From assembly GCA_964570505.1 (NCBI GenBank), contig CAZMYL010000002.1:53414-117413 (forward strand): 64,000 nt of DNA, written 5' to 3'. The translations under genes were made by a program, and so were the position numbers. A model generated the notes under the pieces. That model had not been told where the DNA came from and made no database searches. It was given only the letters and a program-made list of their open reading frames with translations. This DNA comes from an uncultured Pseudomonadota bacterium. Lineage in GTDB: Bacteria > Babelota > Babeliae > Babelales > CAIQNR01. This document shows positions 9,069 to 63,954 of this stretch, piece after piece. Each line of letters opens with the position of its first letter. The stretch's first letter is position 1.

Positions 9069-9631
9069 TCAATATATTTCAAAAAATACATGATTATCTT
9101 TATACACTTGACACTAAAGATTTTTATAAAAATATAGGAATATTTTTAGGAGCAAATGTTTTAGTTTGCGCTTTTATTATGTATGCATCTTTAACAACTA
9201 TTGCTTCATATAAAAATTCACTTCAAGAAGATTATAAAAAAGAACAAGAGACAGCACAATTACTCAGAAGGCTTGCAAAAGTAAAAAAACAAAGTGAAGA
9301 AATAAATACAATTTTAGAACAAGAACCAACATTTAGAATTAAAAATTTCTATGATGACACTATAAAAAAATTAAACTTAGAAGCACATCAACGTCGACAA
9401 TCAGAAGTTTCTGAAGAAGATATACTAAGCGGACGCTATACAGAAATAAGATTAAATGCATTGTTAAATGGAATCGACACTCATCAATTATGTAACTTAC
9501 TACAAACTCTAGAAGAAAAAGATCGTATTTACATGAAAGAGCTCGTAATAACAAAAAAAGATTCTTTGATTGATGTTAATATTACAATTGCAACATTAAC
9601 ATTAGAAGATAATAGAAAAAAAGCAGTTTAA
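9065..9631 (+). CDS. GspM/PilO-like bitopic membrane protein
   Basis: The ORF is 188 aa. It has the N-terminal TM IGIFLGANVLVCAFIMYASLTTIA, a K/E/Q-rich coiled coil and a small C-terminal domain. The call is based on operon position between the L-like gene and the second secretin. Confidence 0.4.
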   Translation: MINIFQKIHDYLYTLDTKDFYKNIGIFLGANVLVCAFIMYASLTTIASYKNSLQEDYKKEQETAQLLRRLAKVKKQSEEINTILEQEPTFRIKNFYDDTIKKLNLEAHQRRQSEVSEEDILSGRYTEIRLNALLNGIDTHQLCNLLQTLEEKDRIYMKELVITKKDSLIDVNITIATLTLEDNRKKAV

Positions 9632-9643
9632 AAAGGTTTTATC

Positions 9644-12313
9644 ATGAAGAAGCTTGCCTTTATTTTATTTTCACTCACAGCTCTAGCTTCTTGGAGCTTG
9701 TCAGCAGAAATTATACCTGTTACAAAAAATTCTACTGTCTTCAAAAAACAAGAGGATTTTTCAGTAGATGAAAAACTTATATCATTTAGATTTAATCAAG
9801 CTCCATTAATTGAAATAATAAACATGCTTGCCGAAGAAAAAGGTCTCAATATAGTAATTCCAGCAGGGCAACAATCAATCGCTGAAAAAGTTACTTTTGA
9901 AATGCCAGAAAAAATAACTGTTGGAGAGGCGTGGGAAAGGCTTTTGAGCTTTTTAAGAATATGTGGATATTCGGTAATCTTTCAAAGAGAGTTTGTAACA
10001 ATCATAAAAAATGATCCTAAAGACACATCGCGTCAACCATTTCCTCTTTATGTACAAACCAGCACAAGTGTTATTCCTAATACTGATGAAAAAATTCGTT
10101 ATCTTTACTATTTTTATAACATGCAACTTTCAGGTGACTCAAATAGCGGATCTGTTATAGATATATTACAAGCATTTCTTTCCAAAGATGCAACAATATT
10201 ACCTTTAGATGATGGTAGTAACGGAATTGTAATAACTGATGGAGCTCGTCATATTGCTTCAACTATCAATCTTCTTAAAGAACTTGATGAAAGGATGCTG
10301 GGCAACGAAGGAAGAGAAGTTGTTAAACTCAAACACACCGTAGCAACAACAATTGCTGCTTACTTACAATCAATAATTAATCCATCAGGAAAGCAAATGG
10401 CAGGGGATATTGGAGCACCAGCAATGTCTCAATATTTTTCAAAAAACATTCGTATTGTTCCAGAACCTCGAACAAATTCTCTTATTTTATTAGGCAAAAA
10501 AGAACCCCTTGCTCGTATAAAATTATTTATAGAAGAATTTATTGATATAAAATTAGATTCAGGAGAATCAATTTTACATATTTATGATTTACAATATCTA
10601 GATGCAGCAACATTTAAACAAACATTAAGCAGTATTTTAGCTTCACAAGGAGCTGCCTCAAGTCAATCAAGTGGTTCTACTGCCAATAGCTCTGGGCAAC
10701 AATATTTTAAAGATGTAAAAATAGTCGCAGAATCAACACAAGCAGTTAACCCAGCAACGCTTGCTAGCGTTTCTTCTGGTAATGTTTCTGCCAATAATCA
10801 AGCAGGTAATCGATTAATTATTGCAGCAAAACGAGATGACTGGTTAAGAATAGAAAAACTTATTAAAGACTTAGATAAGCCTCAGCTTCAAGTAGCCATT
10901 GAAGTGTTAATTGTTGACTTGACTGTAGCTGAAGATAAAATTCTTGGCGCTCAATTACGCAATCTTTCTAGTTTAAGCATTGGAAGTGCAAATTTCCAAA
11001 CATCACACTTAGGTGGTAACGCAAATGGAGTATTTATTGAAGCTCCAGCAATAAATAGTACTAGTGGCGATCAGCTTAAGTCTGATCTTTTGCAAAAAAC
11101 TGGTAACAACTCTGCAGGAAACCAAGAAAATATGGCTTCTGGTTTTACAGCAGGTTCATTTATTTTATCATTTAAAGATCCTGCAACTAATGGTATGTGG
11201 CTTATTACGCAAATGCTTAATACATATCAAGATGCAAAAATACTTTCACAACCATTTATTGTTACGCTCAATAATCAACCAGGATCATTTAGCACAGTTC
11301 AAAGCAAATTGCTTGCAGGTGGATCAAGCGTTATTCCTGGTGGTGGTGGTGTACAATCATATAAAGAAAACGTCAAAGCTACCTTAGGTGTTAAATTAAC
11401 TCCTATGATAAGCCGTGATATGAGAATTAATTTAGCAATAGATGTATCTATTCAAGAATATCAAGATACTAACTCAACAGTTATTTTAAATAGAGCAATA
11501 CATACAAACGTCAATATTCGTGATGGCGAAATATTAGTTCTTGGAGGATTAACAAAAACAACTTTAACAAAAAGTGAGCGCTCAACACCAATTTTAAGTA
11601 GAATTCCAGTAGTTGGTAATCTTTTTAAAAGCAAAGACAATGCAAAATCAAAAGACAATCTTCTTGTTTTTATATCTCCTCGCATCATAATGCCAAGAAA
11701 AGAAGGTATATTTGATGCATACACCGCAAGTAAAATATCTAACGTTAATAAAATGTTTGATAACAACAATATGGAAAGTTTAAAAGATCCTATTACTCAC
11801 TGGTTTTTTGGCTCTGATCAAGATGAATTAGCAGTTAAAAAAGTAAAAATGCTCGGCAAAAAAGACCTATTTGATCAAGATATTGATTTAGAGAATGAAC
11901 GATCTTCAAAAATAATTATTGTAAATAAAAATGAGCAACTCTCTCCATCTGACATTAAAGAATCCGTTTCTTTAATTCCATCTCCAGACAAAACAGAATT
12001 AGACAAAACAGCTACTGGATTACCAAAATTAATTGTCCAAGCTCCTCCAAAAATAAATAACGTAAAAAAAGAAACAGATGAAGTTTTAAATGAAGCAATT
12101 TTAATGGAAGAGCTTAATAATCAACAAAATGAATCCTCACAGAAAAAAATAATTGAACGAACAAAAACAGGAATCCCTAAGATTATTGTAAAGCATCCAG
12201 AAAATATAATTAGAGAAAAAAAAGAAGAAGAATCAAATAACAATTTTGAGTATCTTAATAAAGAAGATGCTAATTTAAAAAAATTAGCATCACAACTTAA
12301 ACCTATTAATTAA
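9644..12313 (+). CDS. gspD: secretin, GspD family (paralog 2) with long C-terminal extension
   Basis: The ORF is 889 aa with a signal peptide. The N0-like block is ISFRFNQAPLIEIINMLAEEKGLNIVIP, and the N-domain motif is VPEPRTNSLILLG. The core reads LQVAIEVLIVDLTVAEDKILGAQ ... ILVLGGLTKT ... TPILSRIPVVGNLFKSK ... LLVFISPRII. A tail of about 200 aa follows. Confidence 0.9.
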   Translation: MKKLAFILFSLTALASWSLSAEIIPVTKNSTVFKKQEDFSVDEKLISFRFNQAPLIEIINMLAEEKGLNIVIPAGQQSIAEKVTFEMPEKITVGEAWERLLSFLRICGYSVIFQREFVTIIKNDPKDTSRQPFPLYVQTSTSVIPNTDEKIRYLYYFYNMQLSGDSNSGSVIDILQAFLSKDATILPLDDGSNGIVITDGARHIASTINLLKELDERMLGNEGREVVKLKHTVATTIAAYLQSIINPSGKQMAGDIGAPAMSQYFSKNIRIVPEPRTNSLILLGKKEPLARIKLFIEEFIDIKLDSGESILHIYDLQYLDAATFKQTLSSILASQGAASSQSSGSTANSSGQQYFKDVKIVAESTQAVNPATLASVSSGNVSANNQAGNRLIIAAKRDDWLRIEKLIKDLDKPQLQVAIEVLIVDLTVAEDKILGAQLRNLSSLSIGSANFQTSHLGGNANGVFIEAPAINSTSGDQLKSDLLQKTGNNSAGNQENMASGFTAGSFILSFKDPATNGMWLITQMLNTYQDAKILSQPFIVTLNNQPGSFSTVQSKLLAGGSSVIPGGGGVQSYKENVKATLGVKLTPMISRDMRINLAIDVSIQEYQDTNSTVILNRAIHTNVNIRDGEILVLGGLTKTTLTKSERSTPILSRIPVVGNLFKSKDNAKSKDNLLVFISPRIIMPRKEGIFDAYTASKISNVNKMFDNNNMESLKDPITHWFFGSDQDELAVKKVKMLGKKDLFDQDIDLENERSSKIIIVNKNEQLSPSDIKESVSLIPSPDKTELDKTATGLPKLIVQAPPKINNVKKETDEVLNEAILMEELNNQQNESSQKKIIERTKTGIPKIIVKHPENIIREKKEEESNNNFEYLNKEDANLKKLASQLKPIN

Positions 12314-15583: not shown

Positions 15584-17503
15584 TTAAAATGTATAAGTTA
15601 ATCCAGTTGCAAAACTATACGCAACATCACTCCACAAGAGCGGGAAATAATCCGGCAAATCTGTAGGGTCAACTGAATCAAGTTGCTTTCTTTGGGCTAA
15701 TGTAAATGGCTGACCATGAACATCAACATAATGAGAGCCTGGCTGAAACACTGCCATCATAAAATCAACAACAACGTTATCACTTAAATTTGCTCTAGAT
15801 ATTAAATTAAATTCTGTTCCCAAAAACTTGCTTGCTTTTTGATCAGTTGTAAGCTTTGTTAATAAATCAAATTTATTTCCAGGAGCCTGCTCCCAATAAA
15901 CAAGAAGATTTGGATTTAAAGCAGTCTTAAAATGTGATTCTTTATTTAAATAACTTAAACTAACACCCGTAAAAACTAAATTACTAAAAGTATCAACTAT
16001 TGTTGAAAACAAGTTTCCAGTTGGAGGTGTAGAAAGAGGTCGAACAAGCTTCTTGCTTCCACCCATCACAAAGACACTCTTAACTAATTTACCAGCATAT
16101 AACTCTTGCAAACTCACAAAACCCTTATAATCTCCATCAACCTTAGAAGCTAAAGGATCTAATAAATTAGTATTTGGATTCATATCTCCACTTGCAATAC
16201 CAGCTGTAAAAGCAAGTTTTAAGTCTCTTTTATATGCCCAATAACCAATATCACTTACAAACATATATCCTTTGTAAATATTAGTATAAGGCGCTCTGAA
16301 GCGAATAGGGCTATTATAATAAGTTGTCCCTGGAATTTGAGCTCCATTAAAATCTATTGATCTTGGAACACTATTTACCGCTTTTCTTGTTGCAGTGTCT
16401 AATGCATTATAAACAAGCTGTTCAGCTGGTCCTACAGGATAAACTGCAGGATTAACGGTATATACATCTGAAAATGTATATGTTGTAACCCCATTAACAT
16501 TCAATCTTTGAATAACGTTACGATCAAGTCCTCTTACATCTTGAGCTCCAAAATTCATTGCTCCGTCAAAACCACCTTCCCAATCATTATATACAGCATC
16601 CATAGCCATACCAACGCTTGTTAATTTACTTTTAGCATCAGCATAAACTTCTATTGTTTGCTCTGGAGCGCTATTATGAACAACATATGGTTCAAATTTT
16701 AATTTTGAAGTATGTGTGGAAACAGGAGTAATATTTAAACGAACAGCTCCGATCCAATTAACTTTACCAAAGCCACGTGATGAATCTGGGGGTCTGTCAA
16801 AAAACTGAGCCTGAGTTTTCATTAAGTTATCAGATATTCCAGTGCTATTGTTTTGTAAAATTGCAGTATATATATCATAAGAAAAATCAAAATCTTTAAA
16901 AAATCCACCGGTAAATTTTACACCGTATGCGTATTGATCTACAGTGCCGTCTGTATAAAATCCTAATGTACCAGGATTAACAGCGTAAGCATCTCCTAAT
17001 GCAATACCACGTCCTAATTGAAAAGGAAAAGACCCAATAGTTAAACTATGAAATGGAGCATTTAATCCAAGAGCCTCTCTTAGGTCAACTTGAAACCAAG
17101 CTTCACGCAACCAAGTTAAAGGCAAATTAACAGTATGCTGGTGAGCTTCATCAAGTGGTTGTAAATAGCCTCCATCATCTTTTAACTGAACAAAAGATGT
17201 TTTACTCGTTTTATTATTACCCCACACAGCTTTCATGCGTAAATCTAAAACAGCCTCAACTACAGGATTATTTATATTAAAAAAAGCATCAAAGCTGATT
17301 CTATTAGCAAAACCCTTATCTGCACTTACAGAATTATTAAGTAAAGATGAAAAAATATCAAAGTTTGTACCTGTAGCAATTTTACCTTTAAATTCAAGGT
17401 TTTCATTTAAATCTTGATTAAAATATTGAAATTTTGCAAAAGAAGAAAATGTTCCAAAAAAAGTTACAAAAAGTAAAAAAAATTTTTTAAATTTTTTAAA
17501 CAC
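15584..17503 (-). CDS. outer-membrane beta-barrel protein (putative porin, family not recognised)
   Basis: The ORF is 639 aa with the signal peptide MFKKFKKFFLLFVTFFGTFSSFA. It is rich in alternating aromatic/Gly beta-strand patterns. The C-terminus GLTYTF ends in Phe, the typical OMP sorting signature. Confidence 0.6.
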   Translation of the reverse strand: MFKKFKKFFLLFVTFFGTFSSFAKFQYFNQDLNENLEFKGKIATGTNFDIFSSLLNNSVSADKGFANRISFDAFFNINNPVVEAVLDLRMKAVWGNNKTSKTSFVQLKDDGGYLQPLDEAHQHTVNLPLTWLREAWFQVDLREALGLNAPFHSLTIGSFPFQLGRGIALGDAYAVNPGTLGFYTDGTVDQYAYGVKFTGGFFKDFDFSYDIYTAILQNNSTGISDNLMKTQAQFFDRPPDSSRGFGKVNWIGAVRLNITPVSTHTSKLKFEPYVVHNSAPEQTIEVYADAKSKLTSVGMAMDAVYNDWEGGFDGAMNFGAQDVRGLDRNVIQRLNVNGVTTYTFSDVYTVNPAVYPVGPAEQLVYNALDTATRKAVNSVPRSIDFNGAQIPGTTYYNSPIRFRAPYTNIYKGYMFVSDIGYWAYKRDLKLAFTAGIASGDMNPNTNLLDPLASKVDGDYKGFVSLQELYAGKLVKSVFVMGGSKKLVRPLSTPPTGNLFSTIVDTFSNLVFTGVSLSYLNKESHFKTALNPNLLVYWEQAPGNKFDLLTKLTTDQKASKFLGTEFNLISRANLSDNVVVDFMMAVFQPGSHYVDVHGQPFTLAQRKQLDSVDPTDLPDYFPLLWSDVAYSFATGLTYTF

Positions 17504-18811: not shown

Positions 18812-19813
18812 TTACATGATGCATTTCTTTCCATAAATTATAAATATTGAAAAAAGCAACAAAACACAAAGCATGCTGGTTGTTGCAAAGAAAGATATTT
18901 TATATAAAAAAAACATTTGCGCAACAAGCGACAAGTAGGTAGCTATAAAAGCAAAAAATAAAAGGATCTTTTTTTCATTCCATTTTTTATCACGTAAATA
19001 ACATATGCTATGATCGGGGCTTCCTAAATAAAATGGTTTGTTTTTATAAGATCTTATAATGATTAACAAGAAAGTTTCCATTAGTGGAATTGCTAAAATA
19101 ATAACCCCTGTAATAAAAATATGATCATTAAATCTATCTAATCTCCCTAGATTAAATGGTAATAAGCTTAAAACACCCCCCATCATTAAAGATCCTGCAT
19201 CTCCAAGATAAATTTTTGCCTGTGGTTTGTTATACCAAAGAAAGCCTAAAATACCTCCAATAAGAAGGCTGCTCCAAATCATTATTTCATAATTATTTAA
19301 ATAATATGCTAATAAAAAAAATGAAATAGATGCAAAAAGACTAATAATCCCAGCAAGTCCATCCATTATATCAACAAGATTTAAAGCATTCATGCTAGTT
19401 AAAAACCAAAGAACAGTTATCAAAAAAGCAATTCCTCTAGGCAGGTATGATGCTTTTAAAAAATTCCCTGCTGACAAAAAAACTATAGTTGCTAGCATTT
19501 GTCCAAAAAGTTTTTGCAATGGCCGCATAACATAAATATCATCAATAAGCCCAACAATAACTAAAAGCGATATCCCAAAAAAATTAATTAAAAAATGTGT
19601 AGTTTTAAAAAGATTTGCATAATATGCAACTATTAAAAAAGAAAAAAAAATGGAAACACCTCCAAAATAAGGTGTTATTTTTTTATGAATTTTTATTTTG
19701 CCATCAGGAATATCAATAATTCCCAAAAAAAAAGCAATCTTAGAAAAAAAGGGAATAACTACTAATGTAATTATAAAAGAAGAAAAACCATATAAAAATA
19801 TTTGATACATCAT
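18812..19813 (-). CDS. polyprenyl-phosphate sugar-1-phosphate transferase, WecA/MraY (GT4) family
   Basis: The ORF is 333 aa with about 10 TM helices. The motifs are GIIDIPDGKIKIHKKITPYFGG, GLIDDI, NLVDIMDGLAG and YLGDAGSLMMGG. The N-terminal pattern looks closer to WecA than to MraY. Confidence 0.8.
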   Translation of the reverse strand: MMYQIFLYGFSSFIITLVVIPFFSKIAFFLGIIDIPDGKIKIHKKITPYFGGVSIFFSFLIVAYYANLFKTTHFLINFFGISLLVIVGLIDDIYVMRPLQKLFGQMLATIVFLSAGNFLKASYLPRGIAFLITVLWFLTSMNALNLVDIMDGLAGIISLFASISFFLLAYYLNNYEIMIWSSLLIGGILGFLWYNKPQAKIYLGDAGSLMMGGVLSLLPFNLGRLDRFNDHIFITGVIILAIPLMETFLLIIIRSYKNKPFYLGSPDHSICYLRDKKWNEKKILLFFAFIATYLSLVAQMFFLYKISFFATTSMLCVLLLFSIFIIYGKKCIM

Positions 19814-24215: not shown

Positions 24216-25652
24216 TTAAATAATTGCTCTAATAAGTTTTGTCCAGGAATAATTTTGAGCAAATGGTGTTTTTAGGTACGAGCTATGAATTCCTCTTATT
24301 GGAAAATAAATAGAAAGGCCATATGCTTTTGGTAAATTTTTTCCTGATTCATTTGCAAATATAACAGTTTTTACTAAATTTCGTGTCTGAATAAATGATT
24401 CTTTTAGCTCTGTTTTTATAAAAGCTTTTTCTTGATCAATATTCATATGTTCTATTGACTCAATCATATTATTTAAAAAATCGCACAAATCTATGTATGT
24501 AGGTTCTGAAAAACAAGTGCACATTCTTCTATTTTTACTAATTTGAATGAGTCTATGCACAGAATTGTTGCGTTGATATTGCAAGGCTTCTAAAAGCAAC
24601 GAAATTGTCTTTTCTAGTGATATTTCAACTTTATACAATTCTGTTAAATCAATAGCTGATAAAGTATAATCATTGCTTATATTTTTATAATGATTGCTGT
24701 ATTCTGCAACAATATGTTGCGCAAATTCATAAGGCTTGAGTGCTTTTGTTAAAAAAGGCTCAAAGATTTTATGATATGGGTATCCAGCTCCTAGCTCTAA
24801 TTCTTGAGATCCAACCATTATATTTGCAAACGGAGAAAGAAGATTGCCAACTTCTATCATTCCCATTAAGCATGCGTCAAATGCAATAATATCAAATTTT
24901 ATACCATTAGTTTGTTGCTTAACTGTTGCTAAAGCATCAATTAATTTTTGATTTGTTAAATATGTTCCAAATGTATCAGAGAAGCATATTCCACGATCTC
25001 TTTTTTCTTCTTCTCGTTGTTTTGCATATTCAAGAAAATCTATTTGTCTATTGATTTCGAGCATATTTGTGTCTGGATTAAAATTAAAAACCTCAGATGC
25101 ATTTGATGTTTTACCGCCAATACTATCTAGTATTCCTATTCCATGGTTCCATAAAATAAGAACATAATGGTCTGCAGGATACTTTTTAATGGCCCATATG
25201 CAACTGTCAGCTAGTGTTTCTGCGCTTCCAAAGTCTAATTTTTTTTCAGATAAAGGATCTTTTTTGTTAACTTGAATAAGATTATTTTTTTCTACATAAA
25301 AACGTTTAGTTTTTTGATATGGCCCTTGTCCATCCATTTGAACTAAAATATTGATAAAGTCTGATGATCCAATTTTTTTCATATCTTCTAAATTTTTTTT
25401 AGCAAAATAATCAAGATCATTATCATTAGCCATATATGTTAAGCAAGTCATACTTTTTTTAGGTTGTATTTTTTCAAAATTATTATTGGGATTAGCAGTA
25501 TGATTTATATGTGATGAATGATTTATTTTTTTGCGTTGAATGGTATTTAATTCATTGTTTTCATCATGCAAAAAAGAATCATTTTGAATATCTTTTGTAG
25601 AGCTAAAAATGGAAGTGCTTATGAAAACATATATAAGTAATTTTTTTTTCAT
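24216..25652 (-). CDS. secreted clostripain-like cysteine peptidase (C11 family)
   Basis: The ORF is 478 aa with a signal peptide. It has a His-Gly and Asp-Ala-Cys catalytic dyad context (ILWNHGIGILD; IIAFDACLMGMIEV) and the N-terminal block YMANDNDLD. Confidence 0.7.
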   Translation of the reverse strand: MKKKLLIYVFISTSIFSSTKDIQNDSFLHDENNELNTIQRKKINHSSHINHTANPNNNFEKIQPKKSMTCLTYMANDNDLDYFAKKNLEDMKKIGSSDFINILVQMDGQGPYQKTKRFYVEKNNLIQVNKKDPLSEKKLDFGSAETLADSCIWAIKKYPADHYVLILWNHGIGILDSIGGKTSNASEVFNFNPDTNMLEINRQIDFLEYAKQREEEKRDRGICFSDTFGTYLTNQKLIDALATVKQQTNGIKFDIIAFDACLMGMIEVGNLLSPFANIMVGSQELELGAGYPYHKIFEPFLTKALKPYEFAQHIVAEYSNHYKNISNDYTLSAIDLTELYKVEISLEKTISLLLEALQYQRNNSVHRLIQISKNRRMCTCFSEPTYIDLCDFLNNMIESIEHMNIDQEKAFIKTELKESFIQTRNLVKTVIFANESGKNLPKAYGLSIYFPIRGIHSSYLKTPFAQNYSWTKLIRAII

Positions 25653-41317: not shown

Positions 41318-42631
41318 ATGGTTTCTAATTTTCTTTATAATGTTTGTTCTCGTATTGATGATTTTTTCATACTACCATCACTTTTTATGTTTTTGAGTAT
41401 TGGCATCTTTCTTACTTTTAAAACAAAATTTGTTCAATTAAGGGTTTTTCCTAGATTTTTTCATTTACTTTCAAAAGGAGTTAAACATAAGCATTCATCT
41501 GACGAAAAATCTATTAACCCTTTTCATGCTCTTTTAACTTCTATGGCAACAACAATAGGAATGGGTAATATTGTAGGACCAACAATTGCTATAAGTACAG
41601 GAGGTCCAGGAGCTCTTTTTTGGCTTTTGAGTTATTCTTTTTTTGGATCTGTTATCAAATTTACTGAAGTATCTTTTGCTATAAATTTTAGAACTCAATT
41701 AAAATCAGGTGTTTTAATTGGAGGCCCTACTCAATATCTTAAACAAGTGAATAGTTTTTTAGCATCATGGTATGGATTTATTACGGTCTTTTTATTTGCA
41801 GGATGGTCTGGACTTCAAGCAAATACCTTAGCAACTATTTTTGCCTTGGAATCTGTGCCAAAAAGCATTACAGGAGTTGCTTTGGCAACGGTTGTATTTT
41901 TAGTTGTTAGAGGAGGGATTGTTCGTATTGGCGAAATTGCAAGTAAGTTAGTTCCCTTGATGTTTGTTATGTATGTTACATTTACTTTAAGTATTATTCT
42001 TACTGATATTGCTGCATTGTGGAATTCTTTATGTTTAGTATGTTCCTGTGCATTTTCCTCAACTGCTGCAGTTGGAGGTTTTGCAGGAGCATCTGTTATT
42101 TCAGCAATGAGGCAAGGAATTAATAGAAATATTTATATTACAGAAGCAGGGCTTGGAACTTCTAGCATAGCTCATTCAATGGCAGATACAAAGTATGCAT
42201 CTGATCAAGCAATTTTAGCGATGTATTCTATTGTTGCTGATACATTTTTGATGGCACTTTCTGGACTTTTAATTTTAGTTACTGGTGTATGGAATCGTGG
42301 TGCTTTTAGTAATACATTGGTCTATGAGATTTTTAAAACATATTCGCCTGGTATTGGTAAATGGGTGTTGCTTGCAAGTGTAATGTTATTTGTTTTAACG
42401 ACAGTAATAGGCAATAGTTTTAATGCTAGTCAAAGTTTTGCATCATTAACAAAATATCGTTTTATGAATTGGTACTATCTATTTTTAGCTGCTGTTATTG
42501 TACTTGGTGCTTATGCGCAGGTTCCTCTTGTATGGAAAATTATGGATGTTATGCAGATTATGGTTGCCATTCCACATATTATCGGATTGTTTATTTTAAG
42601 TACTAAGCGAAGCGATGTTTTAAATATTTAA
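41318..42631 (+). CDS. alanine/glycine:cation symporter (AGCS family)
   Basis: The ORF is 437 aa and polytopic. The motifs are SMATTIGMGNIVGPTIAISTGGPGALFW and ITEAGLGTSSIAHS. Confidence 0.85.
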   Translation: MVSNFLYNVCSRIDDFFILPSLFMFLSIGIFLTFKTKFVQLRVFPRFFHLLSKGVKHKHSSDEKSINPFHALLTSMATTIGMGNIVGPTIAISTGGPGALFWLLSYSFFGSVIKFTEVSFAINFRTQLKSGVLIGGPTQYLKQVNSFLASWYGFITVFLFAGWSGLQANTLATIFALESVPKSITGVALATVVFLVVRGGIVRIGEIASKLVPLMFVMYVTFTLSIILTDIAALWNSLCLVCSCAFSSTAAVGGFAGASVISAMRQGINRNIYITEAGLGTSSIAHSMADTKYASDQAILAMYSIVADTFLMALSGLLILVTGVWNRGAFSNTLVYEIFKTYSPGIGKWVLLASVMLFVLTTVIGNSFNASQSFASLTKYRFMNWYYLFLAAVIVLGAYAQVPLVWKIMDVMQIMVAIPHIIGLFILSTKRSDVLNI

Positions 42632-42985
42632 TTATTTGTTAACAATAGCAATATTAGGTCTACTTTCTGAGTGATTCGAATTTTTCTCCCCTTCAAGGGT
42701 TGTTTTTAAAAACATTCGATCTAATGTGTTTTGACTTGCTCGTCCTGCTATTATAACTTCTTTGCGTGCATTTTCTGTGCTAGCTCCATCTTCATCTATT
42801 ACTTCATTAAACCTTTGTACTGCGCGTAAAATTTTTTCTGTATCAGCTTCAAATTTTCTTGATAAGGATTGATCGGCAGTTTTTATATCAATCAAGATAA
42901 AAATAACTAAAAATAGATACAGCGTTTTATTTTTTATGAGCTGTTCTTTTTTAAGTAGAAGAATAAAGACATTTTTAATATTCAT
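42632..42985 (-). CDS. small secreted/membrane-anchored protein, unknown function
   Basis: The ORF is 117 aa with an N-terminal hydrophobic segment (LYLFLVIFILIDI). It abuts the converging AGCS gene with no gap. Confidence 0.4.
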   Translation of the reverse strand: MNIKNVFILLLKKEQLIKNKTLYLFLVIFILIDIKTADQSLSRKFEADTEKILRAVQRFNEVIDEDGASTENARKEVIIAGRASQNTLDRMFLKTTLEGEKNSNHSESRPNIAIVNK

Positions 42986-43065
42986 GCTTATAATCCTTTG
43001 TCTAATAAATGAATAGTAAAAATGATTATCTTATAAGATGACTTAAAAAATATAGAGATTGAAAA

Positions 43066-45267
43066 TTATAAATTTTCAATCTCTGAAATTTTAACATTAT
43101 TTAGTGACAGATTTAAGCTATGCTTTTCAAAACCAAGGTTTACAATTTTATCAATCAATTCCATAGGTTTAATTCCAACCTCTGCGGCTTGGTGAAAAAG
43201 ACAAGTTGCAGGAGTAAGTGCCGGAAGTGAATTAATTTCTAAAATAACAACACGATCTTTTTTTGTAGGACTTTGTTCTGCTGTTTGATAAAAACAGTCA
43301 ATTCGTGCATATCCAGAGCATTGAGCTGCAATATAAACTTGCTCAATTATTTTTTTTACATAGTTCAAAATTTCATTTGAAAGTGGGGCAGGAGTTTGAT
43401 TTTCTCCCGCTCCTGGTAAAAATTTTTCTTCGATACTTAATATTCCATTACTTGCAACAGCTTGGCTTGGAGGAAGAGCTTGTACATTACTTCCATTTCC
43501 TATTACACCTACTGTTAATTCCATGCCTACTATACATTCTTCTATAAGCGCAAAATCTTTGTTGTGAGCAAATATTGATTCAATAGCATGTACAAGTTCT
43601 TCTTGGTTCTTTGCTTTTGAAACCATTACGCTGCATCCATCATCATGAGGTTTTATGATAAAAGGGAAATTGATTGTTTTTTGAATATTATCAAGGATTT
43701 CTATTTTATTATTATTCCATTCAGTATTTTTAATAAGTATTCCTTGAGGAACATCAAAACCTTCAGATTTTAAGAAAGAAGTTGTTTCATATTTATTCAT
43801 AGCAAGAGCGCTTGCAAGAACAGACGATCCATTGTAAGGGATTTTTAATGTTTCTAGCATGCCTTGAACTGCTCCATTTTCACCAAGGCCTCCATGAAGG
43901 CCAATAAAAATAAAATCAAATTTTTCAGGCAGCGATGCCCAGCTTATTTTTGATGATCTATCAAGATCATATTCTATTTCTGCTGTTGTATTATGAACAA
44001 GCAATTTTTGATTCAGCGGATAAATATCCATTTTAGAGTCAAGAAAGAGGGGGGTTGTTTCATATTTTTCTGGAGAAAGCTTGTAGCAAACATTTCTTCC
44101 AGAATTCAATGATGTTTCTTTTTCATTAGATGCTCCTCCAAGAAGCACTCCAATGCGTATTTTTTTATTAAACGTTGTGTTCATAGACTCTTTTTTATTG
44201 CTTGAAGTGAAACCCTTATAGTTTTTAAATTCACTTTCAATTAAATAATTAATAATTTCTGTGTGACTCATATTAAGTTGGGCTGCTTGATTAAAAAAGA
44301 AGCTTGAAGGAGACATTCCGCAGAGCGTATTAGGATCAATGATTACAATTGACCCATCCTTTTTTAAAAAGCCATCAATTCTGGATATTGTGGAAAAATG
44401 AAGAGCCTTCATAACAGAAAGGCATGTTTCTTGAATGTTTAAAATGTCTTTTTGAGAGCATCGCGCAGGTGTATATTTTTGAGCATAGCCAGGCATATAT
44501 TTATGCTCATAATCAAGTATATACGAATCTTTATTAAGGGTTAATTCTGTTGGAGGGAGCGCTAAAATTTTCCCCGTTTCTGGATGTACTAATGTTACAC
44601 AGGTGAACTCCATTCCTTCAATTTTTTCTTCTATTAAAACTGGTTGCGGGTTGTAAGGATCTATGAACATTGCATATTGTACATTAGTTAACAAATCTTT
44701 TGCATTTAATACGATGCTAACTCCCAAACTTGATCCTTCTTGGCATGGTTTTATGATAACAGGAAATTGTAGGTTTTGTTCTTTTAAAAGTTTTAAAAGG
44801 TTTGATTCTGAAAGTTTTTGTGGCTCTATTGTTATTGATTGTGGAGTAGCAATCTTATGAGACTTGAGTACTTTTTTTTGAATTGATTTATTCATACCTA
44901 AAGCGCTGCCAAAAATTTTTGAACCTAGATAAGGAATGTTTAAAACTTCAAGTAAGCCTTGCAAGCATCCATCTTCTGCATAGCGGCCATGTTGGGCTAT
45001 GTATATAAAATCAACATAGTTTTTAAGATCATCCCAAGTTATTAATGTTGCCTCTGTGTGCAGTCTATGTTCAAAATCTTTTATTTTTCCTCGATATAAA
45101 AAATTCCATGGTAAAAGATAAAGTTTATTATCTTGAGACTGGAAAAGTGGAATTGCATTATAACGGGTTGTATCAAGATGATCACAAATAGTTCTTCCTG
45201 AGCTTAAAGATACTTCTTTTTCAATTGACATTCCGCCCATTAAGACGCCGATTTTTGCTATATGCAT
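43066..45267 (-). CDS. ddl: tandem D-alanine--D-alanine ligase fusion (Ddl-Ddl)
   Basis: The ORF is 733 aa and contains two complete Ddl modules. Module 1 has IGVLMGGMSIEKEVSLSSG ... QEGSSLG ... DYEHKY ... SRIDGF ... DPNT. Module 2 has IGVLLGGASNEKETSLNSG ... DDGCSVM ... SIEEKF ... ARIDCF ... LEINS. Confidence 0.85.
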   Translation of the reverse strand: MHIAKIGVLMGGMSIEKEVSLSSGRTICDHLDTTRYNAIPLFQSQDNKLYLLPWNFLYRGKIKDFEHRLHTEATLITWDDLKNYVDFIYIAQHGRYAEDGCLQGLLEVLNIPYLGSKIFGSALGMNKSIQKKVLKSHKIATPQSITIEPQKLSESNLLKLLKEQNLQFPVIIKPCQEGSSLGVSIVLNAKDLLTNVQYAMFIDPYNPQPVLIEEKIEGMEFTCVTLVHPETGKILALPPTELTLNKDSYILDYEHKYMPGYAQKYTPARCSQKDILNIQETCLSVMKALHFSTISRIDGFLKKDGSIVIIDPNTLCGMSPSSFFFNQAAQLNMSHTEIINYLIESEFKNYKGFTSSNKKESMNTTFNKKIRIGVLLGGASNEKETSLNSGRNVCYKLSPEKYETTPLFLDSKMDIYPLNQKLLVHNTTAEIEYDLDRSSKISWASLPEKFDFIFIGLHGGLGENGAVQGMLETLKIPYNGSSVLASALAMNKYETTSFLKSEGFDVPQGILIKNTEWNNNKIEILDNIQKTINFPFIIKPHDDGCSVMVSKAKNQEELVHAIESIFAHNKDFALIEECIVGMELTVGVIGNGSNVQALPPSQAVASNGILSIEEKFLPGAGENQTPAPLSNEILNYVKKIIEQVYIAAQCSGYARIDCFYQTAEQSPTKKDRVVILEINSLPALTPATCLFHQAAEVGIKPMELIDKIVNLGFEKHSLNLSLNNVKISEIENL

Positions 45268-45384
45268 ATAAAGACAACCCCGTAATAATTTAAATTATAG
45301 AAGTTATAGTATAGCTAAAAAAACAATAGATTTTAAAATTTATCTGATTTTTTAAAAACAATTAATGTATTTTATAAATATCAT

Positions 45385-45819
45385 TTGATAAAGGCATTTT
45401 ATTCTATTATAATTTCTATTATGATTTTATCGCTTCTGGTGAAGGTTGTTTTTGATGTTAAAAATGCGGGTATTATTTTTGACTATTTTTTTGAAGTTTT
45501 TTCATATTCTTATCAAGAGCGTATTGCTTGCTCGTGTCAAAATACTGAAGAACTGAAAAAATCATTCTTATATACTTTTCATAGATATAGCTCTTCTGTT
45601 GAAGAGAATATGTTTATTGATAGTATGTTAGGCATACATTCTACTAACACTTTATTTGAAATTAAGCCTCTTCCTATTTTAAATAAAAATAAAGATCGCT
45701 TTTCAAATCGCAACATTTTAAATGATTTTTTTAAAATGTTAGCAGTGGTTCGAAAGTCTTATTTTTCTTTATTAGGAAAAGCGGGGCCTGACTTGTTTAT
45801 TTTATTTAAAAAACAATAA
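45385..45819 (+). CDS. hypothetical membrane-anchored protein
   Basis: The ORF is 144 aa with a TTG start (an alternative ATG is at 45421) and an N-terminal hydrophobic segment. I recognise no motif. Confidence 0.35.
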   Translation: MIKAFYSIIISIMILSLLVKVVFDVKNAGIIFDYFFEVFSYSYQERIACSCQNTEELKKSFLYTFHRYSSSVEENMFIDSMLGIHSTNTLFEIKPLPILNKNKDRFSNRNILNDFFKMLAVVRKSYFSLLGKAGPDLFILFKKQ

Positions 45820-59008: not shown

Positions 59009-60031
59009 TCATAATATATCAAAATTTAATGAGTTAAATTCTTCTTTTTGTGCTTTATAATGGCCTACAAAAGCAATCATGCCTGCATTGTCAGTGCAAT
59101 ATTGAGGTGATGGAAAGAAAAAAGAAATTTGATATTTATGAGCTACTTCTTGAAGGCGTAATCGAATATATTTGTTGCATGCAACTCCTCCAACAAATGC
59201 TAATGCTTTATATTTATTTGGTTCTAAAGCAAGCGCTTTTTCTATTTTTTGTACAAAAATATCTGCTACGCAAATTAAAAATGAACTAGCCATTTTTTGT
59301 TTAAATTCTAATGAATGATCAAGTAATATTTTATTTTGTAAATCATATGCGCCACGCTTTACAGCATCATATAAAACAGCTGTTTTAAGTCCAGAAAAAC
59401 TAAACATAAGATCATTATTTTTATTTCTTGGATAATTAAAAAAGTCTTTAAAATTAACTTCACTAGCTAGTTTTTCTATAATTGGGCCACCTGGGTATCC
59501 AAGTTGAAGAAGTTTTGCAACTTTATCAAATGCTTCTCCAGCTGCGTCATCAAGGGTAGTTCCTAATGTTTGATATATTCCATAATCTTCTATGTTGTAA
59601 ATGCTGGTATGTCCTCCCGATGCCGTGATGCATAAAAATGGAAATGGTATTTTATTTTCTATGCATGCAGAAAAGGCATGCCCTTCAAGATGATTGATAG
59701 CAATAATTTTTTTATTTAAAGATCCTGCAAGCGCTTTGGCAAAAGCAACTCCTATTAAAAGTGATCCTGGAAGCCCAGGTTTGCTTGTAACTGCAATTGC
59801 ATCTATGTCATTAAGTTGTATGCCAGCTTTATCAAATGCTTCTTGTGTAATTTGATTTATTTTTTTGATATGTTCTCTTGATGCAATTTCCGGAACTACA
59901 CCACCATATTTTTTATGCATTTCAGTCTGAGAAAATAAAGTACTTGAAAGCATGCCATTATCTGTAGTGTAAATTGCAGCAGCTACTTCATCACATGAAG
60001 ATTCAAGGCCAAGAATTGTATATTTTTTCAT
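59009..60031 (-). CDS. tsaD: tRNA N6-adenosine threonylcarbamoyltransferase TsaD
   Basis: The ORF is 340 aa. The motifs are ILGLESSCDEVAAAI, HLEGH, SGGHT and GGVACN. Confidence 0.95.
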   Translation of the reverse strand: MKKYTILGLESSCDEVAAAIYTTDNGMLSSTLFSQTEMHKKYGGVVPEIASREHIKKINQITQEAFDKAGIQLNDIDAIAVTSKPGLPGSLLIGVAFAKALAGSLNKKIIAINHLEGHAFSACIENKIPFPFLCITASGGHTSIYNIEDYGIYQTLGTTLDDAAGEAFDKVAKLLQLGYPGGPIIEKLASEVNFKDFFNYPRNKNNDLMFSFSGLKTAVLYDAVKRGAYDLQNKILLDHSLEFKQKMASSFLICVADIFVQKIEKALALEPNKYKALAFVGGVACNKYIRLRLQEVAHKYQISFFFPSPQYCTDNAGMIAFVGHYKAQKEEFNSLNFDIL

Positions 60032-60759
60032 GATATCCGCGTTTTAAATATTTGATTTTTAGGTGACTGTAGGATAACCCATTCTTCTTTTTTATGGAAT
60101 CCGTCAATATCTAAAGATGCCAACAAAGCAATATTATGAATATATTCAAATAATTCTTTGTCTACATCAACATATATAATTGTTGGTAATAGAATAGAAA
60201 GTCCATTAGTGTTCCAATTTGATTCTTTTTTAACTCCTTTAATAAGGTCAGCGTCTTCTATAATTACTACAGCAGAAGAAGGAATAGTAAATGGGCCAAC
60301 CCCTCTTGTTTCTTTAATATTCCAACAATATTCATTTTTTAATAATGTTTTTTCTGCTTTTAATTGATAATGAAGATAGCTGCTTCCAGCTGGAACTTTA
60401 AGGGTTTCGATAGTATTTTTTTTAGGAGTTTCTACAAGAGCTATAACAATATCAAATGTTGAAAGTGCAGATTCGTAAAAACATGTATAACTACATAAAG
60501 GAGACATGTCATCATCGTAGTTTAAAGAAAGGTTCATAACGCTACCTTTATAATAAATGCGCGGCAGCGAGCATTTTTCTAGAGGAGTATTTTTAAAAGA
60601 TGATGGATATTTTATAAATCCAACATATGAAATTGATTTTTTAATAAGATCATTTTTTTGTGCTATTGGTATAGGCAAATAGTGATTTTGTGCAATAATA
60701 TTTTTATTTAGAGCTCCTAAGGTAATTATTATTATTGGTATATACATTTTTTTTAACAT
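60028..60759 (-). CDS. secreted protein, unknown function, translationally coupled to tsaD
   Basis: The signal peptide MLKKMYIPIIIITLGALNKNIIAQ starts at ATG 60759 after a gggaag RBS. Its stop overlaps the tsaD start (ATGA on the minus strand at 60028-60031). The longer ORF from 60828 is not favoured. Confidence 0.55.
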   Translation of the reverse strand: MLKKMYIPIIIITLGALNKNIIAQNHYLPIPIAQKNDLIKKSISYVGFIKYPSSFKNTPLEKCSLPRIYYKGSVMNLSLNYDDDMSPLCSYTCFYESALSTFDIVIALVETPKKNTIETLKVPAGSSYLHYQLKAEKTLLKNEYCWNIKETRGVGPFTIPSSAVVIIEDADLIKGVKKESNWNTNGLSILLPTIIYVDVDKELFEYIHNIALLASLDIDGFHKKEEWVILQSPKNQIFKTRIS

Positions 60760-60896
60760 AAGACTTCCCTTTTTTAAAAGCTTGTTGTGTTGATTCTGAT
60801 TTGTTAAAATATATTTTATTATCTTCATTTTTAATATTTCAAATCTATAACTTACTCTAAGATTTCTAGAGCAATAAATAAATATTAAGGGGCATT

Positions 60897-61881: not shown

Positions 61882-62258
61882 GGGGGCGCACTGGTTTCGA
61901 CGTGCTATTAAAGTTCGTAGAAGCATGCCGAGCTTTTATTGAGTGCTCGTAAAACAAACAGTAAAAACATAAATGCAAACAATGCATTTGCAAACCAAGC
62001 GTTTGCTGCTGCTTAACTTTAATAGTTAAACAGTCTTGTCTGATTGACATGCTCATATGTTAAGAAAGACTCGTATAATAAAAACAATGAGACTACTGCA
62101 GTAGATTATACCCGTTTGTAATGTAGTAGGATACTAACGTGTCTTAAAATATCTTCCCGTTTTCCAGGTAATGTTTTAAGAATTTGTGGAAACTAAGCAT
62201 GTAGGGTCTTCGTTCGGTAATTTTACGGACATGGGTTCGATTCCCATCGCCTCCACCA
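61882..62258 (+). ncRNA. ssrA: tmRNA (SsrA)
   Basis: The 5' end is GGGGGCGCACTGGTTTCGACG. The 3' end is GGACATGGGTTCGATTCCCATCGCCTCCACCA. The acceptor stem GGGGGCG/CGCCTCC contains a G3:U70 pair. A GCATGCCGAG...CTCGTAAAA pseudoknot-1 context is present. The tag reading frame GCA AAC AAT GCA TTT GCA AAC CAA GCG TTT GCT GCT GCT TAA (61975-62016) encodes ANNAFANQAFAAA. Confidence 0.93.
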
Positions 62259-63036
62259 TTCCCATAAGTTTCATTAAAAGATTTTTTTCTAACGAAAATT
62301 TTAATTTATAATCAGGATGCTCTGCGCAAATATCATCTAATATAGTGTCAAATTTTTTATTAAAAAAATTTATATAAATTTTCATAGTTTCTTTAAATTC
62401 TTCTGATAAATGAATTTTTCCGTACATTTTTCTTTCTGGATAATATTTATAGTGTTGTAAGTAAAGATCGTAAGAAGCAGTAGTTGACATTATTTTCTTT
62501 AAAAAAGATTCTTGATCTTCAAGTTTTGTATCCGAATCTTTTTTATACTTTAATAAACATCTTCTTAGATTCATCATCTCAAGAAAAAAATCTGTAAAAT
62601 CATCATCTATAGATCTTTCATTTATTAAATCATCATCATCTGCATTAGCTGGCAAGCTTAAAAATTTCAGGTTTAGAAGTTCTTTTTTGCTAAATAATTC
62701 TGGATAAGGGCACTCTTCCTGTTTGCTTAATTTTGAATATTCCCCTCCAAGATTAGATCTCTCTTCAAAATTAAAATCTGTATCATTTATAGTTGAAGGT
62801 TTAAAAGATTTTCTCATTTGAATTACTAATTTTTCAATAAGAGATTTTCTTCTATCATTGGATTTTGTTTCTTGAGTTCTAAAATCTCTAAAAGGTGCAC
62901 CTCTTAATGATAATGATAGCAATGTGTCTATTTCTTCCAACTTAGTTTGATCGGGGCAGCGACGTTTTGCTTCAAAAGAAGCTTCTTGTGCAAGACAATT
63001 ATGTATTACTAATAAAAATATTACTCTATAAAACAT
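62176..63036 (-). CDS. secreted protein, paralog A of a tandem pair; the 3' end runs into the ssrA gene
   Basis: The ORF is 286 aa with the signal MFYRVIFLLVIHNCLAQE. It shares the blocks KRRC and EERxNLGGEY...PYPELFS with 63040-63954. Its last 83 nt (62176-62258) are the reverse complement of the tmRNA 3' domain. Confidence 0.65.
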   Translation of the reverse strand: MFYRVIFLLVIHNCLAQEASFEAKRRCPDQTKLEEIDTLLSLSLRGAPFRDFRTQETKSNDRRKSLIEKLVIQMRKSFKPSTINDTDFNFEERSNLGGEYSKLSKQEECPYPELFSKKELLNLKFLSLPANADDDDLINERSIDDDFTDFFLEMMNLRRCLLKYKKDSDTKLEDQESFLKKIMSTTASYDLYLQHYKYYPERKMYGKIHLSEEFKETMKIYINFFNKKFDTILDDICAEHPDYKLKFSLEKNLLMKLMGMVEAMGIEPMSVKLPNEDPTCLVSTNS

Positions 63037-63039
63037 TTT

Positions 63040-63954
63040 TTACTTTGGATTAATTAATTTTAATTTCATCATGATTTTTTCTCTATCTACAGCAAAAGTA
63101 AAATTATACTCAGGTACAATTTCTTGAATTTTATTTAATGTGTATTCAAATATTCCTTCAAAGCAATGCATATAATAGTCCATTTTTTTTCTAAATTCAG
63201 GAGATAAGTCTAATTGCTCAACAGATTTAGGCTTGTCTCTAAAGCATTCTAAAAAAATATTATATTCGGTTTTCCAATATGATACTTCTTTTAAAACATC
63301 CTCTTTTTCATTAACTGATATTAATTTTAACCACCTTGTATTATTTGACAATCTCATTAGATTTTCTGTGTAAATAACAAAATCAGCAAAATAATCTTCA
63401 ATAGTTTTTTTATTAGGATTAAGTATCAAATATTCTTCTATGCTTCTTGATTCTTCGAGAAGATCAATAAGATCTTCTTCTGTCATTTTCTTATGAGATT
63501 CAAATTGCAAGCATTCCTTGATTATTTTTGATTCTTTTAAAAAATCAATAAGATTTTCTTCTTGCTCACTAAATAACTCTGGGTAGGGTGTGGCTTCTTC
63601 TTCGGTTAATTCTTGATATTCACCTCCAAGATTAAATCTTTCTTCACGATTTAAAATTCGACGATTTATAGTTAAAATCTTTAAAAATTTTTTGAGGTTA
63701 AATTTTAATATCTCTTCTTTTAATAAGTTGTTAAAAACTGTATCTCTTAAAAAATTTTTTTTTATTAATGTTCGATTTATAGATTCTTCGAGCAGTTCTT
63801 CTTTTTTTGATAATAATTGATTTGTTTGTCTAAATTCTAATTCTGGTTGTTCATATAATAGGGATGAATTTATGCAGCGACGTTTTGGGTTAAAAAAAGT
63901 TTCTTGTGCAAGGCAATTATGTATTGCTAATAAAAATATCACTCTATAAAACAT
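63040..63954 (-). CDS. secreted protein, paralog B of a tandem pair
   Basis: The ORF is 304 aa with the signal MFYRVIFLLAIHNCLAQE. The first 60 nt or so, plus the immediate upstream nucleotides, are nearly identical to those of paralog A. Its stop lies 3 nt before the start of paralog A. Confidence 0.65.
   Translation of the reverse strand: MFYRVIFLLAIHNCLAQETFFNPKRRCINSSLLYEQPELEFRQTNQLLSKKEELLEESINRTLIKKNFLRDTVFNNLLKEEILKFNLKKFLKILTINRRILNREERFNLGGEYQELTEEEATPYPELFSEQEENLIDFLKESKIIKECLQFESHKKMTEEDLIDLLEESRSIEEYLILNPNKKTIEDYFADFVIYTENLMRLSNNTRWLKLISVNEKEDVLKEVSYWKTEYNIFLECFRDKPKSVEQLDLSPEFRKKMDYYMHCFEGIFEYTLNKIQEIVPEYNFTFAVDREKIMMKLKLINPK

Follow-up and report, generated by a model that had tools for sequence, protein, structure and literature searches.

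A tandem D-alanine:D-alanine ligase of Dependentiae built from two diverged Ddl modules

[quoted passage not shown] To our knowledge, almost all Ddl biochemistry comes from the single-module homodimers of Proteobacteria and Firmicutes. Here we describe a gene encoding two Ddl modules in one chain (tandem ddl-ddl, positions 43066..45267, minus strand) in a 64-kb stretch of bacterial DNA from contig CAZMYL010000002.1, which we refer to as the window. The tandem architecture is already known from plants, and thousands of bacterial entries for it stand in the databases labelled 'D-alanine--D-alanine ligase' or 'hypothetical protein'. In plants, a single fusion gene is described as encoding two putative DDL enzymes (PMC9954125). 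This DDL is needed in moss for plastid peptidoglycan and for the division of plastids, and it has been listed among the characterised D-Ala-D-Ala ligases (PMC7432710); its closest relatives lie in the Fibrobacteres-Chlorobi-Bacteroidetes (FCB) group (PMC9434261), and an origin in Chlamydiae or Cytophaga-Flavobacterium-Bacteroides (CFB) bacteria has been inferred for it (PMC3493653). In the searchable literature we found no description of the distribution of bacterial tandem Ddls, of a module pair with an invariant Cys150/Phe216 combination, or of an unfused alr-ddl-ddl arrangement, which does not prove that none exists.

Two diverged Ddl modules in a single chain

The gene opens with an ATG and runs for 733 codons to a stop codon at 43066-43068. 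Pfam assigns two copies each of PF01820 (Dala_Dala_lig_N) and PF07478 (Dala_Dala_lig_C) to the protein (E = 6e-47 and 6e-70), the NCBIfam models TIGR01205 and PRK01372 span either half from end to end, and the two halves share 34% identity across a 355-residue alignment (E = 1e-58). The NCBIfam Ddl models give the whole protein 447 and 444 bits (cut-offs 243 and 246, respectively), and single halves score 220-232 bits, slightly below the same cut-offs; by these scores both modules would be classed as divergent Ddls. An earlier reading of the sequence alone (the original prediction) had proposed two complete Ddl units in one open reading frame (ORF) with no stop or frameshift between them, and the domain models, the half-against-half alignment and the ORF itself all agree with it.

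Module 1 (M1; residues 1-350, 44218..45267) is a canonical-type Ddl by its alignment with Escherichia coli DdlB and relatives and by its predicted fold, and module 2 (M2; residues 369-715, 43123..44163) aligns as a Cys/Phe-type Ddl carrying the signature of standalone enzymes of the Syntrophales type, which are treated below; these and all the features of the gene lie on the minus strand. Between them is a linker (from residue 349 or 351, approximately, to residue 368; 44164..44217) that is predicted to be disordered and is mostly 'x' in the alignment consensus. Its predicted local distance difference test (pLDDT) score is 54-63 over residues 351-370 and below 50 at 359-363, and the extent of the disorder (residues 349-368, approximately) gives a length of about 18-20 residues, rather than the 15 or so first estimated.

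The AlphaFold2 model of the 733-residue chain (built from a 79-sequence alignment) has a mean pLDDT of 92 and a predicted template modelling score (pTM) of 0.90; outside the linker (359-363), pLDDT falls below 50 only in the C-terminal tail, and there are mild dips at the two omega loops. Because a pTM of 0.90 for a chain of two modules implies that they have a defined mutual arrangement, the model points to a rigid, single-chain pseudo-dimer. Each module matches Ddl, VanA and VanG monomers in Foldseek (template modelling [TM] scores of 0.8-0.9); no chain longer than 360 residues is found among the Foldseek matches, so no tandem Ddl appears among solved structures. Dimers recur in Ddl structures and are based on few conserved residues (PMC6899670). 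The dimer-interface residues (G70, G74, V/I88, A92 and D/N96 in DdlB) are kept in both modules throughout the Dependentiae family.

Active-site residues were compared with the E. coli DdlB sequence (identical to PDB 2dln/1iov), using an alignment to which the query and 119 close relatives (n = 120) each contribute both modules, and a cross-phylum set. The latter came from an exhaustive phmmer search of 1.84 billion representatives, in which the best 150 matches were inspected; two modules are present in 131 of these, which come from Dependentiae, Bacteroidota and Patescibacteria. M1 has the complete DdlB triad of Glu15, Ser150 and Tyr216, in the form of Glu16, Ser179 (codon 44731..44733) and Tyr257 (codon 44497..44499, in the omega loop), with the Ser and the Tyr each present in 120 of 120 M1 modules. 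M2 does not keep this triad: its residues are Glu382, Cys545 (codon 43633..43635), a Cys in 120/120 M2 modules and in nearly all tandem representatives, and Phe616 (codon 43420..43422), a Phe in 120/120 M2 modules and in 119/119 standalone relatives. The original prediction had placed the Tyr of an EHKY motif and the Phe of an EEKF motif at exactly these codons, and in the DdlB alignment Phe616 falls precisely in the column of Tyr216; the DGCSV that it had noted in M2 in place of EGSSV is Asp543-Gly-Cys545-Ser-Val, in which the equivalent of DdlB Ser150 is Cys.

At DdlB positions 15/97/144/148/150/215/216/255/257/270/272/281/282, M1 reads E K K x S K Y R D D N S F and M2 reads E K K D/E C K F R D E N T C/V/A (Thr at 281 and Cys at 282 in M2 of the query), and across the three bacterial clades very few modules depart from these signatures. 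Glu15, His63, Lys97, Lys144, Glu180, Glu187, Lys215, Arg255, Asp257, Glu/Asp270 and Asn272 are retained in both modules in 119-120 of the 120 proteins, the Mg2+ ligand at position 270 being Asp in M1 and Glu in M2. Mean identity among Dependentiae is 60.5% for M1 against M1 and 61.8% for M2 against M2; because these values are nearly equal, we take both modules to be under the same constraint and to evolve equally slowly, with the full catalytic machinery in each as far as the alignments can tell. Across phyla, M2 modules are clearly nearer to each other than to any M1, and M1 and M2 are approximately 30% identical, which is about the distance of either from E. coli DdlB (30-34%). The identical signatures in Dependentiae, Bacteroidota and Patescibacteria, together with the clustering of M2 across clades, argue for orthology of both modules between the bacterial tandem proteins; for M1 the signature residues held in common carry most of the argument, given that M1 modules from the candidate phyla radiation (CPR) have diverged further. 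On these alignments the Cys150/Phe216 pair is the invariant mark of what appears to be an ancient Ddl paralogue.

Phyletic spread and unfused forms of the pair

In a word-indexed search, more than 120 clusters of proteins 725-809 amino acids (aa) long matched at 96-100% query coverage and 56-100% identity. The named clusters among them are Babeliales/Dependentiae, and many lie on contigs that run to hundreds of kilobases. One recorded protein, encoded on a 189-kb contig, is 100% identical to the query. In a scan of one genome per GTDB species, 575 stretches encode relatives, and the best 80 of these, which we examined, are full-length tandems without exception (80/80), in independent assemblies that include chromosomes of 1.5-1.9 Mb. 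Eleven of the best 80 loci belong to Dependentiae/TM6 (53-61% identity) and the remainder to Bacteroidota, in which the carriers include cultured Hymenobacter and Pontibacter and metagenome-assembled genomes (MAGs) assigned to Sporocytophaga, Cyclobacteriaceae and Saprospiraceae. Patescibacteria/CPR make up a third large tandem clade (approximately 790 aa), and no plant protein was recognisable among the phmmer representatives. The clusters and the genome loci both answer a question that had accompanied the original prediction, namely whether relatives share the fusion: they do. Four loci (L004, L006, L008 and L010) have a Dependentiae-type tandem and Dependentiae synteny, yet are recorded as 'uncultured Pseudomonadota' or 'Saccharimonadales'; these names are probably taxonomic mislabels.

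The two paralogues also occur as separate genes. M2-type enzymes that stand alone are common among MAGs named Syntrophales, Syntrophobacterales or Deltaproteobacteria, and the exact M2 signature is present in all 119 that were examined. In the commonest standalone cluster the gene order is alanine racemase (alr), M1-type ddl, a 66-codon ORF and M2-type ddl (the unfused ddl pair occupies L088:8604-11074 and L089:1651-4121). A Dependentiae-like contig of 50 kb (L085) encodes M1 and M2 separately, with priA next to them, and the GTG start of M2, preceded at 7 nt by the Shine-Dalgarno sequence AAAGGAG, overlaps the M1 stop codon; this pair, seen in a single assembly, has the appearance of translational coupling and not of a random frameshift. 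We conclude that the M1/M2 pair is probably older than its fusion. Two standalone M2-type genes (in L087 and L084) have no M1-type gene inside 10 kb. Larger fusions are also found by Pfam, namely Ddl-Ddl-MurF, Ddl-Ddl-MurF-alanine racemase, Ddl-Ddl-PASTA and GNAT-Ddl-Ddl. Because of the alr and MurF linkages and fusions, the predicted role of the pair can be assigned firmly to the D-Ala branch of peptidoglycan precursor synthesis.

Several of these relatives have features of their own. Two metagenomic proteins of the CPR-type clade are Ddl-Ddl-MurF (P0232, 1262 aa) and Ddl-Ddl-MurF-alanine racemase (P0234, 1638 aa), the latter holding the entire D-Ala branch of precursor synthesis within one polypeptide, and a third protein (P0224, 987 aa) has a GNAT acetyltransferase domain N-terminal to the tandem Ddl. 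PASTA domains are associated with the binding of peptidoglycan stem peptides. In Bacteroidota a membrane-anchored PASTA-domain gene lies on the same strand directly 3' of tandem ddl in 24 of 32 long loci (for example, L012:10696-11544), and Ddl-Ddl-PASTA fusions of approximately 1220-1290 aa exist (P0141, P0239 and P0247); this linkage may couple precursor synthesis to wall sensing. A C-terminal K(R/K/H/M/L)GPL tail is common to the standalone M1- and M2-type Syntrophales-like Ddls (P0175, P0188, P0258 and P0236) and is lacking in the fused proteins; it could be an interaction or localisation motif shared by the unfused pair. The 66-codon ORF (L088:9798-9998) resembles the C-terminus of an ORF upstream of P0188 (L081:1-573), with the common motif ...LYEALADLS.TPFP.LDIH.GYK.IR..., and may be the remnant of a gene that once stood between the ddl paralogues, an outer-membrane protein being a guess. 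Split M1/M2 pairs were also sought beside standalone P0188 and P0175 and rejected, the neighbours being an ORF of no assigned family (for which an outer-membrane barrel is likewise guesswork) and an ammonia-lyase-like ORF; P0135 is located at a contig end, and its cluster includes a full-length tandem protein.

Likely products of the two active sites

We propose that the protein is a single-chain heterodimeric D-alanine:D-alanine ligase of Dependentiae (TM6/Babeliales), in which a flexible tether of approximately 20 aa links two Ddl paralogues of ancient origin and M1 (Glu-Ser-Tyr) would pack on M2 (Glu-Cys-Phe) as the two subunits of an ordinary Ddl homodimer do. With a complete ATP-grasp site of its own, each module would bind ATP and two Mg2+ and form D-alanyl phosphate from the first D-Ala; the second substrate would then attack this intermediate, and the product, D-Ala-D-Ala, would be handed to MurF for use in the peptidoglycan precursor. 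A 1:1 stoichiometry of the paralogues would be secured by their fusion or, in genomes with separate genes, by translational coupling. A hydrogen-bond network holds the omega loop closed over the substrates, and the Cys and Phe of M2 would deprive this network of both hydroxyls; for this reason the kinetics, pH profile, inhibitor sensitivity or second-subsite stringency of M2 should differ from those of M1, the product of M2 most likely still being D-Ala-D-Ala. We give this reading (single-chain heterodimer, D-Ala-D-Ala as the physiological product, and M2 differing in kinetics or stringency) a probability of roughly 0.6. Of its parts, we are highly confident that the protein is a conserved two-module Ddl serving MurF, and the retained residues make catalysis at both sites likely.

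A number of points weigh against the heterodimer proposal. That both sites are active, and what M2 makes, we infer from residues, and the canonical Ddl dimer geometry between M1 and M2 from a predicted structure. The changes of Ser150 to Cys, Tyr216 to Phe, Ser281 to Thr and Leu282 to Cys or Val have been fixed over a very long time, as the alignments suggest, and this looks like functional specialisation rather than neutral drift. The orthology of plant DDL, and its possession of the M1(Ser/Tyr)-M2(Cys/Phe) signature, are read by analogy from descriptions in the literature, and a further ddl or a D-lactate supply gene may lie elsewhere in the genome, beyond the 64 kb of the window. Finally, a Tyr to Phe change alone turns a lactic-acid-bacterial Ddl to depsipeptide synthesis (PMC5996685).

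This last point leads to a division of labour, in which M1 would make D-Ala-D-Ala and M2 (with Cys150, Phe216, Thr281 and a small residue at 282) would be a dedicated D-Ala-D-X ligase, X being D-lactate, D-serine or another substrate, so that two stem-peptide termini would come from one polypeptide; we hold it to be unlikely. Y216F and S150A mutants of DdlB reportedly gain D-Ala-D-Lac activity (work of Park, Lin and Walsh in 1996), and VanC2 is said to have Phe at the Tyr216 position (Healy, Park and Walsh, in 1998). Because Phe goes with D-Ala-D-Lac activity in the DdlB mutants and yet is also found in VanC2, the position reports second-subsite chemistry generally and not D-lactate in particular. 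The subsite residues of M2 are invariant across phyla, and the paralogue pair has been kept, not collapsed to one gene, both of which favour a separate task for M2. In lactic acid bacteria the choice of Phe or Tyr at this site does decide between depsipeptide and dipeptide ligase activity (PMC5996685), and for that group the original prediction was right to treat the association of Phe with D-Ala-D-Lac formation as established; across Ddls, however, Tyr at position 216 is only 40-50% conserved, with other aromatic residues elsewhere (PMC6899670).

Curated family models do not bring M2 closer to ligases of altered specificity. On NF000206 (D-Ala-D-Lac ligases) M1 scores 144.8 and M2 136.4 bits against a cut-off of 550, and the individual D-Ala-D-Lac Van models (cut-offs 650-775) give 103-134 bits. 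Among the D-Ala-D-Ser models (VanC/E/G/L/N, NF000207 and NF000091; cut-offs 495-775 bits) the best score is on VanG (188.7 bits for M1 and 160.9 for M2, cut-off 495), and NF000207 gives 137 and 149 bits (cut-off 520). Against the Leuconostoc enzyme LmDdl2 (PDB 1ehi), M2 scores 79.9 and M1 82.1 bits, among the weakest of the Ddl matches and below the Ddls of B. anthracis, Salmonella and K. pneumoniae (126-129 bits). Membership of the Van type is ruled out by these scores, far under the cut-offs, and by similarity to PDB entries, and membership of the LmDdl2 type by the fact that both modules are nearer to ordinary Ddls than to LmDdl2; M2 is not nearer to LmDdl2 or VanA than it is to ordinary Ddls.

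Genomic context also counts against a dedicated D-Ala-D-X ligase. The 64-kb window has no D-lactate dehydrogenase (ldhA), VanH, VanX-like or D-2-hydroxyacid dehydrogenase gene and no vanT context, and it likewise has no mur or alr gene, so that neither of the gene searches suggested with the original prediction (D-lactate dehydrogenase or VanX-like genes, and the rest of the mur pathway) gave a result there. In the relatives the linkage is to alr and murF, not to the supply of 2-hydroxyacid or to serine racemase; the carriers are diderm or CPR, for which a glycopeptide selection pressure would not be obvious; and moss, whose DDL has a like architecture, has precursors that terminate in D-Ala-D-Ala (PMC9434261). 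The step from the Phe to a D-Ala-D-Lac module is not supported for M2 by this context (paralogue signature, alr/murF links, Van and LmDdl2 scores, window genes and the 40-50% conservation of Tyr); two ligases of different specificity, which the original prediction had put forward, are possible on sequence grounds. It is rather doubtful, in our view, that M2-type Ddls with Cys150/Phe216 form a distinct enzyme class of great age that makes a product of its own (a D-Ala-D-X dipeptide or depsipeptide); were it so, Dependentiae, Patescibacteria, many Bacteroidota, Syntrophales and possibly plant plastids would routinely use a fixed 1:1 pair of enzymes to build two kinds of stem termini or a second metabolite containing D-Ala.

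Quite improbable is a protein with one active site and a scaffold, in which one module turns over and its partner has a structural or allosteric task, either stabilising the dimer or sensing D-Ala or D-Ala-D-Ala. Enzyme-pseudoenzyme pairs typically have a fixed 1:1 stoichiometry, such as fusion or translational coupling provides, M2 has no canonical triad, and M1 has Asp and not Glu at the Mg2+ ligand position 270. Pseudoenzymes, however, normally lose some of the ATP-binding, Mg2+-binding or transition-state residues, and these are invariant in both modules across three phyla; the absence of decay in any catalytic residue of M1 or M2 makes the scaffold less likely. M1 and M2 evolve, moreover, at an equal rate, and M2-type genes also stand alone, with no M1-type gene in their vicinity (L087 and L084, above). 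The pairing of a catalytic with a regulatory module, the other option offered by the original prediction, is disfavoured by the same retention of catalytic residues and slow evolution. The merger of two adjacent ddl genes by an assembly or sequencing error, or a recent tandem duplication, is rejected as having practically no chance of being correct: unfused adjacent pairs do exist in other lineages, but the ORF is uninterrupted in independent assemblies (more than 120 clusters and the best 80/80 genome loci), its halves are only 34% identical, and Ser150/Tyr216/Asp270/Phe282 in M1 and Cys150/Phe216/Glu270/Thr281 in M2 recur unchanged across phyla, so that the fusion is read as a true one and not as merged neighbours.

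Under the heterodimer proposal, if the second site only tunes kinetics, the pair would trace a path from homodimer to obligate heterodimer to fusion; if M2 has its own substrate, the cell-wall chemistry of a large part of bacterial diversity and of plastids would need to be revisited.

Gene neighbourhood and comparison with known systems

The gene has candidate signals of its own by consensus scan. A terminator-like hairpin (43054..43084, minus strand; 14-bp stem followed by a T-run) overlaps the stop codon and, as a pattern match only, may mark the end of the ddl-ddl transcript; a promoter-like TTTAAA-18 nt-TATACT lies approximately 40 nt upstream of the ATG (45308..45337, minus strand), a weak candidate in that the number of sites in the scan equals the shuffle expectation. 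An AGCS-family Na+:alanine symporter (41318-42631, plus strand; TIGR00835, 308 bits) is convergent to ddl-ddl. An operon of the two was considered and rejected, given the convergent genes, the terminator after ddl-ddl and adjacency in only 3/11 Dependentiae loci; the symporter could import alanine for the wall with no operon link. The ORFs that flank ddl-ddl (42632-42985 and 45385-45819) have no family match, and no tblastn match in any related locus, and are probably not conserved genes. In Dependentiae orn lies beside the tandem gene in 9/11 loci and priA in 8/11, an adjacency that is backbone synteny and not function; by this synteny the window belongs to Dependentiae.

The genes of the window are otherwise mostly housekeeping (GatB, RNase G, MnmE, RuvA, Orn, PriA, PolA and others, in addition to the symporter). 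A glycosyltransferase family 4 (GT4) gene (18812-19813) was considered as MraY and rejected as WecA-like. At 3878-12313 (plus strand) there are two tandem secretin genes (5038-7572 and 9644-12313) with a gene like type II secretion system component C (T2SS-C) and a PilM-like gene, and before this cluster comes a gene for a MoxR-type AAA ATPase (2789-3781); two tandem secretins are unusual in so small, host-dependent a genome. A clostripain-family (C11) cysteine peptidase (24216-25652, minus strand) is possibly a host-directed effector of this intracellular lineage. Five ORFs of 229-639 aa (15584-17503, 27677-28489, 60028-60828 and 62176-63954 on the minus strand; 32191-32880 on the plus strand) have zero Pfam or NCBIfam matches. 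The start of ORF 62176-63036 was probably miscalled, because the ORF overlaps the 3' end of the transfer-messenger RNA (tmRNA) gene (61882-62258).

A hard-wired pair of different Ddl paralogues, one of which carries the 'resistance-like' Phe together with a Cys, is found in Dependentiae, Patescibacteria/CPR and much of Bacteroidota, unfused in Syntrophales and, by the literature, in plant plastids; its bacterial distribution, the ordered M1/M2 pair and the unfused alr-ddl-ddl form make up a compact biochemical question. Compared with E. coli DdlB (PDB 2DLN), each module has the same fold (TM 0.89-0.91) and the same ATP, Mg2+ and catalytic residues, M1 with the Glu15-Ser150-Tyr216 triad; DdlB, however, is a homodimer with one module per chain, whereas the query has two diverged paralogues in one chain, and Cys150/Phe216 in M2. 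LmDdl2 and the Lactobacillus Phe-type Ddls (intrinsic D-Ala-D-Lac ligases) share with M2 the Phe at the Tyr216 equivalent (Phe616), but they are single-module, Gram-positive enzymes with no special affinity to M2, in which Ser150 is also replaced by Cys. The Van ligases (VanA/B/D for D-Ala-D-Lac; VanC/E/G for D-Ala-D-Ser) are of the same ATP-grasp Ddl superfamily and have an altered second-subsite specificity set in or around the omega loop; the query differs in lying far below every curated cut-off and in having no vanH/vanX/vanT context in the window. The chlamydial MurC-Ddl fusion likewise joins a Ddl to another peptidoglycan-precursor enzyme in an intracellular bacterium, but the partner is MurC and not a second Ddl, and the query scores 104-140 bits on the corresponding model (NF011171, cut-off 1015). 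In the Desulfobacterota of the Syntrophales type (L088/L089) the two paralogues have the order and the signature residues of the fusion, although as separate genes, with alanine racemase immediately upstream and a K(R/K/H)GPL tail on both proteins that is absent from the fusion. The plant DDL (Arabidopsis AT3G08840 and Physcomitrella PpDDL), nuclear-encoded and eukaryotic, is by description the same two-DDL fusion, and its FCB affinity is to the group that carries the bacterial tandem enzyme.

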